DNA of 64,000 bases, taken from contig JAVKOQ020000099.1 in the NCBI GenBank assembly GCA_031835245.2, forward strand, positions 1 to 64,000, given 5' to 3'. Source of the DNA: Balamuthia mandrillaris (taxonomy: Eukaryota). Under the pieces are notes generated by a model. That model was given only the letters and a program-made list of their open reading frames with translations. It had not been told where the DNA came from and did no database searches. This document shows, piece by piece, positions 10,564 to 47,343 of this stretch (positions are counted from its first letter, which is position 1; every line of letters starts with the position of its first letter). The translations under genes and the position numbers were made by a program.

Positions 10564-10697
10564 CCTCGCAACCAACTCTTATTCCTGGTCTGTTTGCTGG
10601 CGTTACACCTGTGTTGGAAAGGGCAGGAAGGCAGCTGGCCACTGCTACTTGCTGGCGTTACCGCTGCCTGCTAATTAATTGTGCTTTTTTTTCGGCC

Positions 10698-11727
10698 AAG
10701 ATCATAAGATCTAAGGACAACAATCCTGAATTGTCTTTTGGGCCAATGAGCATGTTTCCCGCCAAAACAACCCTTCCTTCTCCAACTTAAGTGGAACCAC
10801 GTCTGTGAAGGCAAGGTGGTGGGTTGGGGTGGTGGGGTGAATCGTCATTCCCCTTGACACTTTTCTGCTGCTCGTTTTCTTTCTCTTCTCTTCTCTTCTC
10901 TTCTCTTCTCTTCTCTTCTCTTCTCTTCTCTTCTCTTCTCTTCTCTTCTCTCTTCTCTTCTCTTCTCTTCTCTTCTCTTCTCTTCTCTTCTCTTCTCTTC
11001 TCTTCTCTTCTCTTCTCTTCTCTTCTCTTCTCTTCTCTTCTCTTCTCTTCTCTTTCTTTTCAAAAGTAAACACACACATCCACGAAGCTCCATGCACCAC
11101 CGTATTTCTGATAGCTACACTTCTACTGCACAAGGAGGAAACCAGCGGAAGGAGGCAGAGGTGGAAACCGAAGCAGGTCAGCCGCAGGCAGGGGCACTGC
11201 TCCGATTGAAAAGGTTGCGTTCTTTTTTCTCTGCTCTCACTAATAAATTCTTTGTTTTTTTAAAAGCATCACGAACCTTTGTGCGCCTCTTCCACAACGC
11301 TACTGGAAGCTGGCCTGAAATGCAAGCTGCCCACAGTGCGGAAAAAAGTTTACTTCCTCTCTCGGGTTGGCCATCCACTTCGGTCGGGTCCACAAGGAAG
11401 GGGGTCGGGCCACTACTTCTGCTACATCCACTGCTACTCGGAAAAGAAGAGCGGAAAACGCCCCAGCAGCACCCCAGTCAAGGGCACAGAAGCATGGAAG
11501 GCCACAGGCTGCACCCGCCCAGACCTTTTGGAACCAGTTTTCCGGCGAAATCGGGAGAATCTTGATACACCCCGAGGGACTCGTTCCGTCTCGCCCAGCT
11601 GTACAGCTCACCAAAAAAGGCAAGAACGGAGAAGATCCGCCTTTATCCGCGCTCGGAACAAAAGAAGACGCTGGCCAAGTGGTTCAGCGCTGCACGATGG
11701 ACCTACAACAAGGCCGTGGAGTTCCAT
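10698..11727 (+). mobile_element. Truncated, decayed copy of the 5' half of the Fanzor element (paralog of 40147-41375)
   Basis: Colinear from AAGATCATAAGATCTAAGGACAACAA (10698 vs 40147) to ...TACAACAAGGCCGTGGAGTT (11727 vs 41375). Start codon lost, internal deletions, one frameshift, no RuvC part. Confidence 0.92.
10879..11055. repeat. (TCTTC)n microsatellite inside the decayed Fanzor copy
   Basis: Nearly perfect pentamer array. Only a short TC-rich seed is present at the equivalent position (~40366-40405) of the intact element. Confidence 0.95.
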
Positions 11728-11789
11728 CATCAGCTAACTTGCCCCAAGGCAAAACTGCGATGGGGCGGCACCGAGGCGTTTGCCAGAGA

Positions 11790-39287: not shown

Positions 39288-40726
39288 CTGAGATGAGTGG
39301 CACAAAGCGATGAAACGGGCTATGCTGGTGGGGGTGGTCGTCGTGGTGGTGGAGGCGCAGTGGCTCAAAGTCGAGGCGGTGAGAGACTTGGTTTCCGTTC
39401 GTTCCGTTCTCTCTTTCAACGTTCAAGAAAAAGTAAAGAATAAAACAAAAAATAAAACAAACAGCTATTTGTAGTCCCGATGATGGAACTCGTCAACAAA
39501 GGGCCGTCGGGTATTTACAATATTTTGTGGCAAACAAAAAAAAGAGGGATGACTTTTCCGTACTTCTTCCTCCCTCGTCTTCTTGATATATGGTTTCTTG
39601 GAAAGCAAAGATGTCACCCAAATACGCAGTAGAAGTGGAAGAAGTAGAAAAAGAAGAAGAAGTAGAGTACAAAGAAATGGAGCAAACAAAAACGGCTAGG
39701 ATGGACAACTTGTCCTACGACCGCAATCCTACCACCACCACCACCACACAAAGAGATAAATATAAAATCAAAAAGGGGATAGCTGAAGGCCACGCAGCGG
39801 GGACGTGGCAGACGTCCTTTCGTGTCAACTTGTTCTTCGGTGGTCGAATTGACGGGTGTGGTTTTGCTTTCCGTGTGTTTTCCCTGACCCAACGGAAACT
39901 TCAGCAAAGTCGGGAAAAAGGTTGGAAACTTTGGAACCGAAAACTCCTAAAACGTTCTTAATGTTCCGATTGGTTGGTAAATATCCGCAAGAAACTTCGA
40001 GGAAAAATGTGCTAAAAATCGCAGAGCTGTGACGTGGAGCTCTTAAGAATGCAAAAAATGCCCCGACGATAGTTGGAATGCCATGAGTTCGGAGAATTCT
40101 TGGTATGTAAAAAATGCAATTCAAGAGAGCCAGAGCAGGCGACGCAAAGATCATAAGATCTAAGGACAACAAAAAAAGAAATTACATGACATTCGTCTTT
40201 TGGGCCAATGAGCATTTTTCCCGCCAAAACAACCCTTCCTTCTCCCACCCAAGGCAAAGTGGTGGGTTGGGGTGTGGGGTGGGATGAATGGAATGGATGC
40301 TCATGCTGCTGCCGCCAATAAACTTTTGGTACTCGTCATTCGCATTGACACTTTTCTGCTACTCGTTTTCTTTTCTTCTCTTCTTTTCTTGTCGTTTCTT
40401 TCTTTTCAAAAGTAAACACACAGACACACACATCCACGAAGCTCCACGCACCACCGTATTTCTCATTGCTACGCTTCTACTACACAAGGAGGAAACCAGC
40501 GGCGGAAGGAGGCAGAGGTGGAAACCGAAGCGGTTCAGCAGCAGGCAGGGGCACCGCTCCGATTGAAAAGGTAGCGTTCTTTTTTCTCTGCTCGCTCACT
40601 ACATTTTTTGATGATGGAAAAAAAATTTGTTACCAACCACTCACTAATGATTTCTTTTGTTTAAAAAAGAACAGCATCACGAACCTCTGTGCGCCTCTTC
40701 CACAACGCTGCTGGAAGCTGGCCTGA

Positions 40727-42469
40727 ATGGCAAGTTGCCCACAGTGCCGAAAAAAGTTTGCTACCTCTCACGGGTTGGCCGTTCACTTCGGTCGGGTCCA
40801 CAAGGAAGGGGGTCGCACCACTACTTCTTCTACTCCCACTGCTACTCGGAAAAGAAGAGCGGAAAACGCCCCAGCGGCACCTCAGGCAAGGGCACAGAAG
40901 CGTGGAAGGCCGCAGGCTGCACCCGCCCAGCCCTTTTGGAACCAGTTTTCCAGCGAAATCGGGAGAAGATTAATACGCCCAGAAGCCTTGTGCTTGGAGG
41001 AACCCTTTGCCTGTGGTTCAGGATGGTTCACCGCCTGCAAGCACATTCCTAACGGAGAAAAGTTGTTGGAGGAGGAGGAGGAGAAGAAGGAGAAGGAGAA
41101 GGAGAAGAAGGAGGAAGAGGAAGAGGAGAAGGAGAAGGAGAAGGAGAAGGAAGAAGAGGAGAAAAACCAGAAAGGCTTGTTAGGCCTCATCGAGGGACTC
41201 GTTCCGTCTCGCCCAGCCGTACAGCTCACCAAAAAAGGCAAGAATGGAGAGGAGAAACCGGTAGTGGGGCGATTGGAGAAGATCCGCCTTTATCCGCGCT
41301 CGGAACAAAAGAAGACGCTGGCCAAGTGGTTCGGCACAGTACGATGGACCTACAACAAGGCCGTGGAGTTTCATCGTGAACATAAAGGAATGCCTCTTAA
41401 GGAGATGAAGGAACAAGTCAGGGAGAAATTCCTGAATAACGGCAATTTCAACGGAGAGGACAAGAGCCTTGCGTGGGTGTTGGAAACTCCTCGATACATT
41501 CGCAGTGACGCCGTCGATGATTTCTTCAACGGCGTGAAAACCAGCTTGGCGGCGGGCAGGACTGGATTCAAGATGAAGTTCCGTGGTCGGAAGGACAAGA
41601 GCCAGTCTCTCAGCATCCAAGCCAGGGAGTGGAACCACAGCAAGTCCATCCGCCAACTCTTCTTCGGGGAGGCGCGAATCAAAGCGAGGGACAAGAACTA
41701 CAAAGTTCCGTCGGAGGTGCTCTATGCCGTTCGTCTGGTGAAAGACACTCGACTGGGCCATTACTACCTCTGTGTGCCTCAGCCTTTGAAGCTCATGGGC
41801 GAGAGCCAAGCCCGTGAGCACCGAAGGAGAGAGGCAGGCATCATCGCCTTGGATCCAGGAGTGCGCACATTCATGACCACCTACAACGGCTGCGGGGAGG
41901 TCACCGAGTGGGGCAAAGCGGATATCAACGAGATAGGCAAGCTGTGCCACCGCCTGGACCGCATGCAGAGTAAGGGCACCAAGGGCAACCACAGGCAACG
42001 GCGCCGTCTCCGAAGGGCCGCTGCTCGGCTTCGCCAGAGGATCCGCAACCTGGTGGATGACCTCCACAAGAAGCTCGTGTCTTGGTTGGTCAGGAACTTC
42101 TCCCTCATCCTTCTGCCAGAGTTCAGGAGCCAGCAGATGGTGCGGCGAGGCCACCGCCGCATTGGCTCACGAACGGCCAGAGCCATGCTCACCTGGTCCC
42201 ACTATCGCTTCAGGCAGAGGCTCCTCAACAAGGCCAAGCAATTTCCGTCCTGTACGGTCTGCCTCTGCGATGAGGAATACACCTCCAAGACCTGCGGCAA
42301 GTGCGGCCAAGTCCACCACCAGTTGGGGGGAAACAAGACCTTTCGGTGCCCCCAACCCGAGTGTGGCTACCAGGCCGATCGAGATGCCAACGCCGCCCGA
42401 AACATCTTGATCCGCTTTTTTACGTTACAAGCACTTACCACCTCCTCCTCCTCTGTGAGGGGGCGGTAG
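40727..42469 (+). CDS. Fanzor (Fanzor2/IS607-TnpB-like) RNA-guided endonuclease, 580 aa, with an N-terminal C2H2 zinc finger
   Basis: HTH_OrfB-like KIRLYPRSEQKKTLAKWFGTVRWTYN. RuvC-I IIALDPGVRTF (D376). ILLPEF, with the alternative catalytic E in DEEYTSKTC (E516). Zn ribbon CGKC..CPQPEC. RuvC-III DRDANAARNIL (D553). Confidence 0.95.
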   Translation: MASCPQCRKKFATSHGLAVHFGRVHKEGGRTTTSSTPTATRKRRAENAPAAPQARAQKRGRPQAAPAQPFWNQFSSEIGRRLIRPEALCLEEPFACGSGWFTACKHIPNGEKLLEEEEEKKEKEKEKKEEEEEEKEKEKEKEEEEKNQKGLLGLIEGLVPSRPAVQLTKKGKNGEEKPVVGRLEKIRLYPRSEQKKTLAKWFGTVRWTYNKAVEFHREHKGMPLKEMKEQVREKFLNNGNFNGEDKSLAWVLETPRYIRSDAVDDFFNGVKTSLAAGRTGFKMKFRGRKDKSQSLSIQAREWNHSKSIRQLFFGEARIKARDKNYKVPSEVLYAVRLVKDTRLGHYYLCVPQPLKLMGESQAREHRRREAGIIALDPGVRTFMTTYNGCGEVTEWGKADINEIGKLCHRLDRMQSKGTKGNHRQRRRLRRAAARLRQRIRNLVDDLHKKLVSWLVRNFSLILLPEFRSQQMVRRGHRRIGSRTARAMLTWSHYRFRQRLLNKAKQFPSCTVCLCDEEYTSKTCGKCGQVHHQLGGNKTFRCPQPECGYQADRDANAARNILIRFFTLQALTTSSSSVRGR

Positions 42470-42550
42470 GCGGTAAGGTTGCTTTGGTGCCGGCACCGTT
42501 GCTTATAGCGAGTCGTAAGACAAGCCGTGATTAGGCACGCCGGAGGTGGG
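42425..42550 (+). ncRNA. Candidate omegaRNA scaffold overlapping the Fanzor 3' end
   Basis: Long stem AAGCACTTACC..CCTCCTC-TGT-GAGGGGG..GGTAAG(GT)TGCTT (42429-42484), followed by GGTGCCGGCACC, a GTC-GTAA-GAC GNRA hairpin and GCC-GTGATTA-GGC. Confidence 0.7.
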
Positions 42551-42649
42551 TTATTTTTTGTTTCTCTGTTTTTTTTTTCCCCCGTCAACTAATTTTGCTT
42601 TATTTTCGTTGTCCCATTGATCGGCTTGATCTTGGCGCCATCTTTTAGG

Positions 42650-44677
42650 ATGCTACCAAGAGGCAGCAAGGCGAGGCTGCTGATACCCTCTATTTCAAGG
42701 TTTGTTGTGGCACCTACCCTGCTCAGTGCCTATTATTAACTGTATCGCCCCTTGACGAACCAAAAAGTCGGTCGTGGCCGCGAAACGGTAGTTCTGCGCT
42801 TGGCCCCGCTACACGCTACCTCTCGACGCAAACAGGAAGTGACGGAGGAGAAGAGGACTACGACGTGGTGGTGGTTGGTGGAGGAATGGTAGGAACAGCA
42901 CTAGCGTGTGCTATCGGTATGTTTGTGCAACTGTGTTTCCATTTGGGAACTAGGAACCAATGCCCGGCCTAACCTTTTTAAAACGGCAGCGACCTCTCCC
43001 CTAACAAAGTACCAACGGGTAGCACTGGTGGAAAGTGCGGCAATACCGGATGTTACTGCGGAGCCATTGCCTCCCTTTCCCGACATAAGAGTGAGCGCAC
43101 TTAGTCCAGGCTCTGTACGCTTCCTTCATGGTTTGTTTTGGTTTTTTACTTCACTTTTTTACCTATTGGGGGAAGCGTGCTTGCTTGCCGCTGCGTTTGC
43201 TGTACTATGGTTGCTCACATACGGACGTTCAACACAGCATTGGGAGCGTGGGACAGCATAGCCAACAGTCACAGAGCCACACCCTACGACGCTATGAAGG
43301 TCTGGGACGCTACGAACACTGCGCAGCTCAACTTTAATGCAGAGGAGGTAGGCACGGACGCCCTTGGCTATATCGTTGAGAACAAGCTGGTTGTCTCTGC
43401 CCTTTTTCAGAGGCTGAAGTCCCTTCCCTCTGTGAAGGTCATAGCTGGAGCACTGGATACCATCCAGCAAGATGAAGATGAGCAAGCAAAGGACCAACAA
43501 GGAAAGGCCACAGTGACCGATTGGACAAAGAGAATACCGCTTACGAGATTGCGCTTGAAAGACGGCAAACAGTTGAAAACACGCCTTTTGGTTGGCGCTG
43601 ATGGAGCTCAGTCAAAGATCCGCAAGACTGTTGCTCGCTTCCCTACCTTTGGTTTTGATTACTCGCAACGAGGGGTCGTGGCTTCTATTGCGTTAAACCA
43701 GCACACTTCCACTGCCTGGCAGCGGTTTCTTGCATCAGGACCCGTTGCTATGCTTCCTGTAAGTATTCCCGCTCGAATCTTATCTCCCTCTTTGTTTTAT
43801 GTAACACATTCAATTATCAGATGTTTGCAGACAACGCATCGATTGTGTGGTCTACAAGCATGCCACATAGCGAGGAGCTTCTACGGATGCCTGAAAATGA
43901 ATTCATCGATGCGCTAAACCATGCTTTTCATGCTCCTCCAGAATCGACCCCACTCTCTCCTCTATCCTATCTTACAGAGCCTCTGCGTAGCATATTACCG
44001 AATACTATTCCACTTTCGGGTTCAGCTCCTCCGCCCTGCCCTCCTCTTGCTATTTCACTCACCGGCAAGCGCGCCGCCTTCCCTTTGAAATTTATGCACG
44101 CCAACAAGTACATTCGTCCGCGTCTGGCGCTCATCGGGTACATCTTTTGCTCTTCTCATCTTCTCTCCCCCTTCCGTTCTCTCTCCAGACTTCCATTTGC
44201 TGACAGCTATTTGAACAGCGATGCGGCCCACTGTGTGCATCCATTAGCAGGGCAAGGAGTCAACTTAGGTTTTGCTGACGTTGTGAGCCTGAGCAAAGCC
44301 CTTGCTCACGCTGTTGAATCGGGACGTGATGTGGGAGATCAGACTGTGCTGCAAGAGTATGAAGACGAACGGAAAAACCAGAACCTGTCCATGCTGTTGG
44401 CTCTTGACGCCATCAAACGGATCTTTGAGACCAACTCTGTTCCTTTGGCATTCGCCAGAAGCGCAGGCATCACCTTGACCAATGTCCTCTCGCCCATCAA
44501 GGTAATGTCGGCGTCCCTTTTTTCCTTCCATTCCTTTCTTTTTCTTTGATCCTGACAACACCTGTGTTCAAGTCGCTGTTTGTGGGGCGTGCCACCGGCC
44601 AAACTCTCCCCTTGGATCATCTCCAACCAAACGAAGAAGCAGAGGTAACCCCGTTGCGCAGCGCTCCATCAGGGTGA
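42650..44677 (+). CDS. COQ6: Ubiquinone biosynthesis monooxygenase COQ6, multi-exon
   Basis: DVVVVGGGMVGTALAC, RVSALSPGS, LGYIVEN, LLVGADGAQS, AWQRFLASGPVAMLP, AAFPL and DAAHCVHPLAGQGVNLGFAD. Confidence 0.92.
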
Positions 44678-44900: not shown

Positions 44901-47136
44901 ATGGAAGGAACAAGTAGCGGCGGCGGCGGCGGTGTTAAGCAGGTTCGGCCGCACCACCATCATTCCAAAGACAAAGAGAAAGAGGAGGATCAGAAGGACG
45001 GCAGCGGCGGTAGTAGTGGCAGTGGCCATAGTAAACAGACCAAAAAGAGGAGCACCACCAAAGATAAGACGCAGCAGCTACCGTCACAACAGCAGGGAGG
45101 AGGAGCCGTTAGGACGACGACCAACCTTGACAAAGACAGAACTGCGACCGAGGAGGAAGGTAGCAAAAGCAGCAGTAATAAGAAGAAGGGCAAGAGCAAA
45201 GAGAAGAAAACGCATCGGGAAAAGGGAGGAGGAGGCAAAAGCACCACCACCACGCCCCCCACCTCAACAATAACCTCATCGACAAGCACTACCGCATCCT
45301 CCACCACGGGACGAGGGAAGAGAGAACAACTGGTGAACGAGCTGCTTCAGTCGGAGCGGGCTCATGTGAGGAACTTGAACACCTTCCTGAAGGACTACGT
45401 GATCCCGCTGAGAGACAAGAAGATCATCCCCTCCGAAGACCTTCAGGACATACTTTGTAACCTGGAGCTCATTCGCAACTGGAACGAGCAATTTCTGGAA
45501 GAAATGGAAGGCCTGCTTGAGGATGACTGTGAGTTTGGGAAGCTCTTCATGGAAATGGTACGGCTATTATGGTGCTGTTGCAAATGACTTTCTTTTGCAA
45601 GTGTTCGAGTGCTGAAACCGTGTTGTTGGAATTATAGATCCCAATGCTTCGTCAGTTGTATGCTCAGTATAATGAGAACTATGCACACGCAATGGAAGCC
45701 TACGAAAAGTGTAAAAAGAACAAGGAATTCGCCACCTTCCTTGAGGTATGCTTGCTTTTGTTGGGCGAGTGGGTGTACACTTGCTGTGTGTGTATGTACG
45801 TGGCGTATAGTAGCTTTGCTGACTCTTGGTTGTAGACAGTGGCACGGAAGCGCAGCGAGGAAGAACGACCAACGAACTCCACCTCTCCTCCTACCTATTG
45901 TAACAACTTTTTAAACTTTCTCTACTTGCCCATACAGCGTATGATAGCCTATGACTTTCTTCTCAAGGTTCTCATCCTTTCTTCCATTGGCTTTTTTGAA
46001 TCTCAAACGAATCCGTAACAAACGCCTTCGCTGGATTTGGTGCTATACAGGATTTAACAGCCGAGACGCCACCCGATCACCCTGATCATGACAATCTTAA
46101 TGCTGGTGCGTTTAGGATCACCCTTTGTTCCCCCATTTCTTTCTTCTTGTTTCTTCCTTGCTCATTGGGCTTTATTGGTGATCACGTTCTTTAGCTTTGA
46201 AGCTTTTACGAGAGGCGGCAGACCATGCTGACAAATTAGCAAATCAGCGAAAGAACATTGATAAAGTAATAAGCATTCAAAGCCAGTTGCTAGGAGAGGT
46301 ACTGTTAGTTGTTCAATTCTCTCTCATATCAAATGATTGACGTACAACGATTGTTCATTACCTTCAGTTCACAAGCTTAGCACGGCCTCACCGCAGGTTT
46401 GTGTACGAAGGGGATGTGATCCTGGTAGTGGGACGGACGCACAGAGAAAGGCATATGTTCCTGTTCAACGACGTGCTTTTGTGCGTCCATCTCAAAAAGA
46501 AGGCAAGGGGTTACAAGATCGACTTTTTGGAACCCCTCGAAACTCTTCAGGTCGGTCTTGCTAATGATTCGCTTGGTATGTTTTATACGTCCACCATTGA
46601 GCACCATCAGCACCTCAAGTTTTCCCTGTCTCATCTTCCCTCTCCTTCTCTTTTCTCTTGTTCCTCTTTTAGCGGATTTCAGGCATGCATTTCGCCTCAA
46701 CTCACCAGCCAAAGAGTACACTTTGCTATCCGTGGATAAGAGCTACTGGATGCAACTCATCTCGGACTCCATAAAGCGACACTTGGCAAAGGCAAGCGGA
46801 GTGCCCGAGCTGACAGCAGGCAACAGACCTTCCAGCAGCAGCGGAGCAACCAACAGTACTGACCAAGGTCGCGAGAACGACGAAACCTCTTCCTCTTCAT
46901 CTAATCATCACCATCACCACACAACTTCCTTCACCAAAGGGAAGTCATCATCAACAGCATCATCGTCATCCTCGTCTTCATCATCAGCAATGATCAAAGA
47001 GGACGAGGAGATCAACTTTCCAGAGCTACTGCGGCACATCGTACAGTGGGCTCACATGGAGGACGAGGCCCTCGCCATGGAGCAACTTCGGAGGCTTGCC
47101 TCTCGCCTCCAAGATAAATATCCTGCCTGTACATAA
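44901..47136 (+). CDS. Dbl-family RhoGEF (DH-PH), multi-exon
   Basis: REQLVNELLQSERAHVRNL, LYAQYNENY, TPPDHPD. PH domain: RRFVYEG..RHMFLFNDVLL..KSYWMQLI. Confidence 0.88.
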
Positions 47137-47225
47137 TTGATTATAAGACCTACAAGGAAAATAAAGGAAACGAAAGGCGATGAGGTGGCCTCTAACATTT
47201 TCCTTGAAAAATTTCCCTTGTGCGC

Positions 47226-47343
47226 AACGGCGTGAAAACCAACCTGGCAGCGGGCAGAGGCGCCACTGGATTCCAGATGAAGTTCCGTGGTCGGAAGGAC
47301 AAACAAGAGCCAGTCTCTCAGCATCCAAGCCAGAGAGTGGAAC
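47226..47343 (+). mobile_element. Isolated internal fragment of the Fanzor ORF (paralog of 41528-41636)
   Basis: AACGGCGTGAAAACC..GATGAAGTTCCGTGGTCGGAAGGACA..GAGCCAGTCTCTCAGCATCCAAGCCAG.GAGTGGAAC, with small insertions. Confidence 0.9.

Follow-up and report, generated by a model that had tools for sequence, protein, structure and literature searches.

Fanzor2 proteins, which descend from TnpB, are defined by a DPG motif in RuvC-I and a catalytic glutamate about six residues before the zinc finger (PMC10711439), and the forms closest to the locus described here belong to IS607-type elements, such as ApmFz2 and the pro-Fanzor ISXfa1, and to the Fanzor2* elements, which carry a Fanzor2 gene between terminal inverted repeats (TIRs). 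The guide RNAs of Fanzors (fRNAs) abut the right end of the element (PMC10530073), the Fanzor2s of Acanthamoeba are IS607-like and lack TIRs (PMC3627910), and the RNAs of ApmFz2 and ISXfa1 extend two bases beyond the last pseudoknot position (PMC11832414; PMC10711439). The present report concerns 64,000 nt of Balamuthia mandrillaris DNA (assembly GCA_031835245.2, contig JAVKOQ020000099.1, positions 1 to 64,000 of the forward strand, hereafter the window), in which a multicopy TIR element carries a Fanzor2 gene whose 3' end overlaps a well-supported, predicted RNA scaffold of the obligate mobile element-guided activity RNA (omegaRNA) type. The scaffold appears to end inside the element, and the T-rich, intron-like tract that follows it might be spliced out, a route to the guide that is proposed tentatively.

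Predicted omegaRNA scaffold

The predicted scaffold lies on the plus strand and comprises hairpin H1, which spans the last codons and the stop (42428..42484), hairpin H2 (42485..42498), whose 6-nt loop GCCGGC (42489-42494) provides the predicted 5' strand of a pseudoknot, three small hairpins inside the pseudoknot helix in the minimum free energy (MFE) fold (42499-42511, 42512-42521 with a GNRA loop, and 42524-42536), and the pseudoknot 3' strand GCCGG (42539-43) followed by AGG (42539..42546 together), which reads as a fossil IS607-type right end and the predicted end of the scaffold. All nine motifs quoted by the original prediction, which had proposed an omegaRNA across the end of the Fanzor gene, were present where it had placed them, and its stem around the TAG stop folds as drawn (42428-42484: z -4.61, with 0/200 shuffles folding as well). 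For 42428-42545 the score was z -2.77 (2/200 shuffles), and the MFE structure pairs CCGGC (42490-94) with GCCGG (42539-43), a long-range pairing that had been suggested earlier and is now read as the predicted IS607/Fanzor2-type pseudoknot of the family, shared with the closest relatives. The span of the original prediction, 42420-42580, gave z -1.58 (20/200 shuffles); the three small 3' hairpins named in it exist as motifs, but alone (42480-42545) they do not fold beyond chance (z -0.10; 88/200 shuffles).

Since the scaffold has no DNA-level similarity past the last codons among 160 related loci, the pseudoknot was sought with a hand-made descriptor, tuned post hoc on the data, in place of a covariance model; Rfam gave no family match, its three matches (E 2.6-4.4) all lying far under the gathering score. 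The closest relatives exhibit a hairpin over the last codons, by eye in the same place as H1, and then a short G-rich stem whose 6-nt loop has possible pairing partners 75-115 nt downstream. The strict descriptor was matched by 5 of the 14 best-scoring relatives, where 0.025 matches would be expected, and H2 is its sole match in the window, where 5/1000 shuffles matched the strict and 269/1000 the loose form. In a loop-swap test, in which the hairpin was chosen regardless of its partner and was present in 11/20 relatives and the window, full 5-bp pairing was observed for 7/12 own loops against 7/122 swapped loops. What weighs against the pseudoknot is that 2/11 foreign loops likewise find a 5-bp partner in the window, that its span of 54 nt is below that of the relatives, that the first loop base is mismatched (as it is, by inspection, in four relatives), and that the tuning of the descriptor followed sight of the data. 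A pseudoknot between the terminal CCGCC and GGCGG runs was rejected, the GGCGG runs being paired inside H1.

Among the listed copy variants of 42428-42545, pairs are broken in 4/15 against an expected 59% (p 0.012), and the six listed for 42499-42536 include five outside pairs and one that keeps its pair. The copies, which the original prediction had proposed to compare, share the sequence as far as the right end of the element at ~42643 and conserve the scaffold segment, and the claim of a Fanzor2 omegaRNA-type scaffold at the 3' end of the open reading frame (ORF) stands as a well-supported prediction. The predicted pairing of the H2 loop (42489-94) with 42539-43 argues strongly for a scaffold end at 42543-46, and applying the register of ApmFz2 and ISXfa1 puts that end at the AGG of 42544-46; in a related IS607 family, seven loci with four different flanks diverge 0-2 nt past the pseudoknot GG. 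Being upstream of the pseudoknot hairpin, H1 may lie outside the mature RNA, and the modelled RNA of ApmFz2 begins 13 nt before the pseudoknot pair (PMC11832414). With respect to the hallmarks of omegaRNAs, the pseudoknot from a 5' loop to the 3' end is predicted by comparison only, the scaffold (42543-46) does not end at the right end of the element (~42643), and the flank could serve as guide only at the RNA level, if spliced. The scaffold is cut off from the flank meant as its guide, because the IS607-type end lies ~96 nt inside the TIR transposon. Separately, the loci L161-L167 represent an IS607 family on viral contigs with several copies, the short ones of which keep only the omegaRNA-region right end and are ghost-like.

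Element ends and the T-rich tract

The element extends from 40137 to ~42643, is multicopy, and has TIRs and TA flanks, mostly with a G on the right side. Its left end is a 17-nt TIR (40137..40153, plus strand), before which reads with mixed flanks break off in three RNA runs, 19, 14 and 6 of them, with an agreement of 0.49-0.82; the left flank consensus terminates in TA, and in the window copy 13/17 letters of 40137-40153 match the reverse complement of 42627-42643. At the right TIR (42627..42639, minus strand), loose ends occur after 42639 in 6 of 8 runs (X1, 8 contigs; X3, 3; X5, 2; X16, 1; X12, 4 contigs; X22, 6 reads), where other copies continue with GCC and one more base and the window copy has ATCTT; the right flank consensuses read GCC, one variable base and TA in 6/6, then G in 5/6. 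One X3 contig (depth 40) covers 42441-42620 with zero substitutions, depth falls from the family to the locus level only past 42647 (X3, 82 to 6.3; X5, 102 to 23), and matching begins at 42645 in contigs of three runs; run X16, without cover at 42536-42591, was not used there. The true flank (42645..42668, plus strand) holds a TTAG target remnant and the start of COQ6 (ATG 42650-52) and is the predicted guide source if splicing takes place. Because the copies continue through tract and TIR and depth drops only after 42647, the T-rich tract belongs to the element.

The original prediction had placed the element end near 42550 and taken the T-rich sequence beyond it as host-derived guide. A sharp change in composition and a nearby scaffold end would fit this, but in two RNA runs and four runs of DNA type or contigs the copies reach the TIR and diverge only after 42639 plus GCC, so that such an end is hardly credible. 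Sequence composition does change near 42550, and what follows is T-rich and unstructured (42546-42648: z +1.09), but it is common to the copies and not host-like. A guide start at 42551 is likewise contradicted by the ApmFz2/ISXfa1 register, under which an unspliced guide would run from 42547 and be identical in every copy, and the idea that the guide runs into the COQ6 upstream region fails on a COQ6 flank that begins only at ~42645. Guide placement by base-composition change can err by 100 nt.

The marks of a Fanzor2* element, TIRs and a target-site duplication (TSD) around a Fanzor2, are present, the TSD as deduced from flank consensuses with TA on both sides and not from single copies; a 3-bp TWA duplication was rejected, the left consensus (TAA) and the right one (TTA) not being direct repeats. 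The junctions of the window copy are irregular, with an extra AGAGC on the left and ATCTT replacing GCC on the right, and represent either templated end-joining or an assembly error. The five extra letters at 40132-40136 and at 42640-42644 each repeat neighbouring sequence (AGAGC the flank, ATCTT the TIR) and occupy the place of the usual TA and terminal GCC. In X5 the last seven letters before 42645 are identical to the left flank of the window copy (40125-40131), which fits, without proving, an allele that lacks the element immediately before the COQ6 ATG (42650). The insertion upstream of COQ6 (42645-44660) is likely polymorphic, and other data sets seem to have the element-free allele. The element separates the COQ6 ATG from its probable promoter (~39420-40130). 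Searched for the TIR pattern, viral contigs yielded 120 loci; no Fanzor relative is encoded at any of them, and they are regarded as chance matches.

The tract itself (42546..42648, plus strand) is a T-rich, AG-free, element-internal stretch of 103 nt that is predicted to be a spliceosomal intron, with the donor at 42546 and the acceptor AG (42647-48) from the target site. It was compared with 12 host introns called by hand in COQ6 and a RhoGEF gene, with one RhoGEF intron (~45900) omitted; the COQ6 frame is continuous across six introns, three of which are spliced in RNA. The tract has a length of 103 nt (host introns 62-107), a T content of 51% (29-47%), an AG-free run of 101 nt (10-81) and branch-like motifs 23 and 32 nt ahead of the acceptor AG, and its composition score exceeds all 12 host introns and lies in the top 0.9% of window 94-mers. 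Donor 42546, scored by pairing with the consensus of the U1 small nuclear RNA, forms 8/9 U1 pairs, is the best of 15 nearby GTs and among the top 1% of 3332 GTs, and coincides with the scaffold end. Downstream of this donor the element lacks any AG, so the acceptor depends on a TAG target (5/6 flank consensuses), the only one available being the duplicated TA plus the G of the target. The sequence features of a U2 intron, namely GT donor, branch-like motif, YAG acceptor and host-like length and composition, are present. Splicing of the whole element was rejected at 2.5 kb against 62-107 nt for host introns, and a protein search with the alternative frame across the scaffold, aimed at the donors that gene models employ, gave no match. 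In the RhoGEF gene the frame is broken at ~45900-45937 with no clean GT-AG solution, which represents an unusual intron or a sequence error.

Possible routes from scaffold to guide

The favoured reading, although it is advanced tentatively, is that an IS607-type omegaRNA scaffold in a TIR transposon is joined to a flank guide by the splicing out of the intron-like gap. In a sense transcript of the ORF and the 3' end, position 42545 would be joined to the first base past the target-site AG, here 42649. The last AG of the scaffold would take the place of the lost acceptor AG, so that agreement of the RNA with the empty site would begin at the AG of that site in any protein register. A target-adjacent motif (TAM) of TAG type would be expected; judging from the family, cleavage of empty alleles by the complex, in this case at the start codon of COQ6, would drive copy-back of the element, which would itself move by a TIR transposase acting in trans. 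That the spliceosome thus assembles the guide RNA by removing a 100-nt TIR-bearing intron, with TAG acting as TSD, TAM and 3' splice site together, is conceivable and is entertained with reserve. The model predicts that many flanks are joined to one fixed donor and that TAG sites are favoured.

The RNA libraries are of long RNA, unstranded and not of the small-RNA kind, 3-5% of the reads of the RNA runs were used, and the data are ambiguous, being compatible with both splicing and retention, as strands are not distinguished and much of the element RNA is apparently antisense. In X22, seven reads exit the element at 42547 (depth there 10), and the sole raw-read consensus across the right end, which comes from this run, lacks the G; both are weak hints that fit splicing, and each is possibly one odd copy. 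The fall of raw-read depth after 42544 was rejected as support for splicing, since the ending of transcripts, an antisense start or the clipping of reads at variable T runs explains it equally; the count is 22 reads, and 3 at 42560 after the removal of 19 whose source seems to be a T-rich locus unrelated to the element. In the 5' part, the joint seen most often runs from 40598 to 40685, is carried by the main X12 contig and, over three runs, by 14 raw reads, and suggests abundant spliced antisense transcripts of the family. On the minus strand the interval 40599-40684 has the form of an 86-nt GT...AG intron, or it may be a DNA deletion.

Several observations count against a spliced guide. On a matrix of the 12 host donors, donor 42546 scores 3.45, which is matched by 15.5% of all GTs, and donors 42473 (7.0) and 42550 (4.2), which would destroy the scaffold or shift the guide, outscore it; an AG-free tract appears in 1583/10000 composition shuffles, and the AGG is inherent in the IS607 end, leaving only the T and the +5/+6 bases as coincidental. 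Two runs carry a GGT insertion behind 42544, at about 10% of depth in X1 and about 20% in X12, and T-rich tracts mark 3' untranslated regions (UTRs) too. The exit at 42547 needs two chance matches if it arose by splicing and one if a DNA copy was cut at the old IS607 end, and among the listed rows, at a depth of 5-10 per run, neither a splice joint nor a loose end falls at exactly 42545. Run X12, which cannot be DNA as the COQ6 introns are spliced in it, has equal depth at 42505 (440) and 42560 (430), and four of its contigs cross the right end with TAG, so that much RNA keeps the tract; this pattern speaks against efficient splicing.

The higher score of donor 42473 on the host matrix could also mean that splicing occurs with no functional flank guide, either as damage control by which host or Fanzor transcripts skip the TIR or from donors 42473 and 42515 with removal of the scaffold. 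A few bases separate the window copy from the COQ6 ATG that follows it, and intron-making transposons are known (cited in PMC10690162), but donor 42473 sits in the stable H1 stem and needs a 176-nt intron with seven internal AGs, while removing the tract alone would leave COQ6 downstream of the Fanzor ORF; this explanation is very improbable.

Retention of the tract in X12 RNA would also fit a further explanation, somewhat unlikely, in which a TIR element captured an IS607 Fanzor2 and its former flank with it. In this view the scaffold still folds, the guide is a fixed internal one from 42547 or is lacking, the Fanzor is a passenger or a fixed-target nuclease, and the T-rich tract is a 3' UTR, a termination region or an antisense promoter. 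The sequence CCGG-A-GG reproduces the ISXfa1/ApmFz2 end, few listed variants fall in the first ~14 nt past the scaffold, the junctions of the window copy are odd, and truncations or frameshifts affect most of the family's 12 gene models; several of the frameshifts, however, are possibly assembly errors in homopolymers. A fixed U-rich guide cannot home, a second target in the window is not beyond chance (two matches at up to 3 mismatches, 0.84 expected), and no AATAAA-type signal is present in 42400-42700. The scaffold variants spare pairs and RuvC shows a synonymous excess (see below), and selection on both would have no obvious use with a fixed element-internal guide.

The X22 exit at 42547, needing one chance match, would also fit guides supplied in trans by truncated or IS607-ended copies in which the scaffold abuts variable flank, the TIR copies providing protein only. 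Truncated copies of the family are common and ghost omegaRNA loci are known for SpuFz1 (PMC10432273), but no loose end at 42545-47 was found among the 19 of 110 DNA rows listed, and X3 depth passes only from 53.7 to 48.6 across 42545-47, which would make such copies a small minority; the sites of the TIR copies themselves would moreover be left unprotected, and supply in trans is accordingly judged unlikely. The published rule for Fanzor2s in TIR elements (PMC10711439) would instead have a long unspliced RNA, its scaffold remodelled to hold tract, TIR and TSD, with the guide after TAG. RNA crossing the right end exists (X12, X22) and the ApmFz2 scaffold measures 205 nt (PMC11832414), but the tract is unstructured and variable among copies, the H2 loop is by inspection unable to pair with the terminal bases of the element, for which the candidate GGCGG runs are already paired in H1, and the intact pseudoknot indicates 42543; application of this rule here is improbable.

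The Fanzor2 gene and comparison with known systems

The Fanzor2 ORF (40727..42469, plus strand) encodes 580 aa with an intact DPG (aa 376), a shifted E (516) before C523, a C4 finger (523-546) and RD (552), and the DPG, E516 and RD residues are invariant in a 50-sequence alignment, in line with the Fanzor2 definition. Pfam matched HTH_OrfB_IS605 and Cas12f1-like_TNB, with OrfB_IS605 below cut-off, and the top PDB match was 9b0l (ApmFz2; E 6e-27), the runner-up reaching 1e-12. The nearest database proteins are transposases by name of B. mandrillaris (94%), with 12 gene models in three clusters, most of them frameshifted or truncated, and several of the frameshifts, located in homopolymers, may be assembly errors. 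In a quick tree of 48 proteins, from which L100 was left out as too short, the ORF sits among environmental, IS607-type relatives, with no 95%-supported clade. A serine-recombinase motif lies upstream in 18/28 relative loci, including the nearest with DNA context (L081, L082, L085), and none was found in the six frames of the element; thus, of the features of IS607/IS607EU elements (a serine-recombinase TnpA, no TIR or TSD, and dinucleotide crossover ends), the TnpA motif is absent and TIRs are present. By its clustering with IS607 TnpB/Fanzor2 proteins and ApmFz2, and by its intron-rich eukaryotic host, the protein is assigned from sequence to Fanzor2; its catalytic residues are intact, and RNA-guided, TAM-dependent DNA cleavage would be its predicted activity.

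Among the coding variants, taken from the 40 best-supported of 151 variant rows between copies, 14/26 listed are synonymous against 22% expected, and in codons 330-570 the fraction is 7/8 against 23% (p 2e-4). Together with the pair-sparing scaffold variants, the synonymous excess in RuvC gives signs of selection after the copies diverged. Two subfamilies were observed, with amino acid changes mostly in the REC/WED part (41384-41647, aa 220-307) and synonymous RuvC changes; this divergence may reflect diverging TAM specificity or gene conversion. Some gene models of the family are mosaics. An N-terminal C2H2-like zinc finger (40733-40801; Pfam zf-C2H2_4, E 0.0013, below cut-off), to our knowledge unusual among Fanzor2 proteins, is followed further on by an E/K repeat. 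Antisense to the ORF, the minus strand has a 324-codon open frame (41180-42154), probably a shadow of GC-rich coding sequence, although antisense RNA appears to exist. Decayed family fragments lie at 10695-11728 (5' half, 75-86% identical) and 47225-47343 (a short internal piece), both without the 3' scaffold, and viral contigs scanned with the single protein gave no match.

No paper on Fanzor in Balamuthia was found, and Balamuthia is absent from the supplement of PMC10711439; the catalogues of PMC10432273 and PMC10530073 may list the family. Likewise, no spliced Fanzor guide is reported in the literature searched, with subscription papers mostly outside its scope. The elements described here appear to be a new Fanzor2* family of unusual architecture and an apparently unreported capture of a Fanzor2 by a TIR element in an amoebozoan. 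If the reading is true, pre-mRNA splicing would be what attaches the guide of this RNA-guided nuclease to its scaffold, and TnpB descendants would have a third route into TIR transposons, which touches on the making of Fanzor guide RNAs in eukaryotes and the adaptation of IS607 nucleases to foreign transposon ends; even unspliced, the locus would hold a very compact predicted scaffold in an amoebozoan Fanzor2 of a TIR element.

The IS607 Fanzor2 and pro-Fanzor systems (ApmFz2, 9B0L; the right-end element RNA of ISXfa1) share with the Balamuthia element the DPG, the shifted-E RuvC, the C4 finger, a hairpin over the ORF end and a 5' hairpin loop that pairs just before the terminal GG. Unlike them, the Balamuthia element has no TnpA, has TIR ends with TA flanks, an N-terminal C2H2-like finger and a scaffold core of only ~60-70 nt, and its IS607-type end lies well inside the element. 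Introners are transposons that create spliceosomal introns, with a splice site derived partly from target-site sequence, whereas only the last ~100 nt of the Balamuthia element would be intronic, for the purpose of guide assembly. In IStrons (IS605 or IS607 combined with a group I intron; PMC10690162, PMC13565253), the 3' junction is likewise both splice acceptor and omegaRNA boundary, but self-splicing removes the whole element and antagonises the omegaRNA, whereas a Balamuthia spliceosomal intron would create the guide. The Fanzor2* elements of Mercenaria, other molluscs and Chloropicon primus (PMC10711439) are alike in having a Fanzor2 in a cut-and-paste element with TIRs and TSD, and the TAG TAM of MmeFz2 (PMC10432273, PMC12923547) matches the TA-G target of the Balamuthia element; the host of the latter belongs to Amoebozoa, and the likeness is one of architecture. 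In the published answer to foreign transposon ends, the scaffold is predicted to have taken in TIR and TSD by recoding, whereas the Balamuthia family appears to keep the old scaffold intact, set apart from the TIR, which lies in an intron-like spacer.

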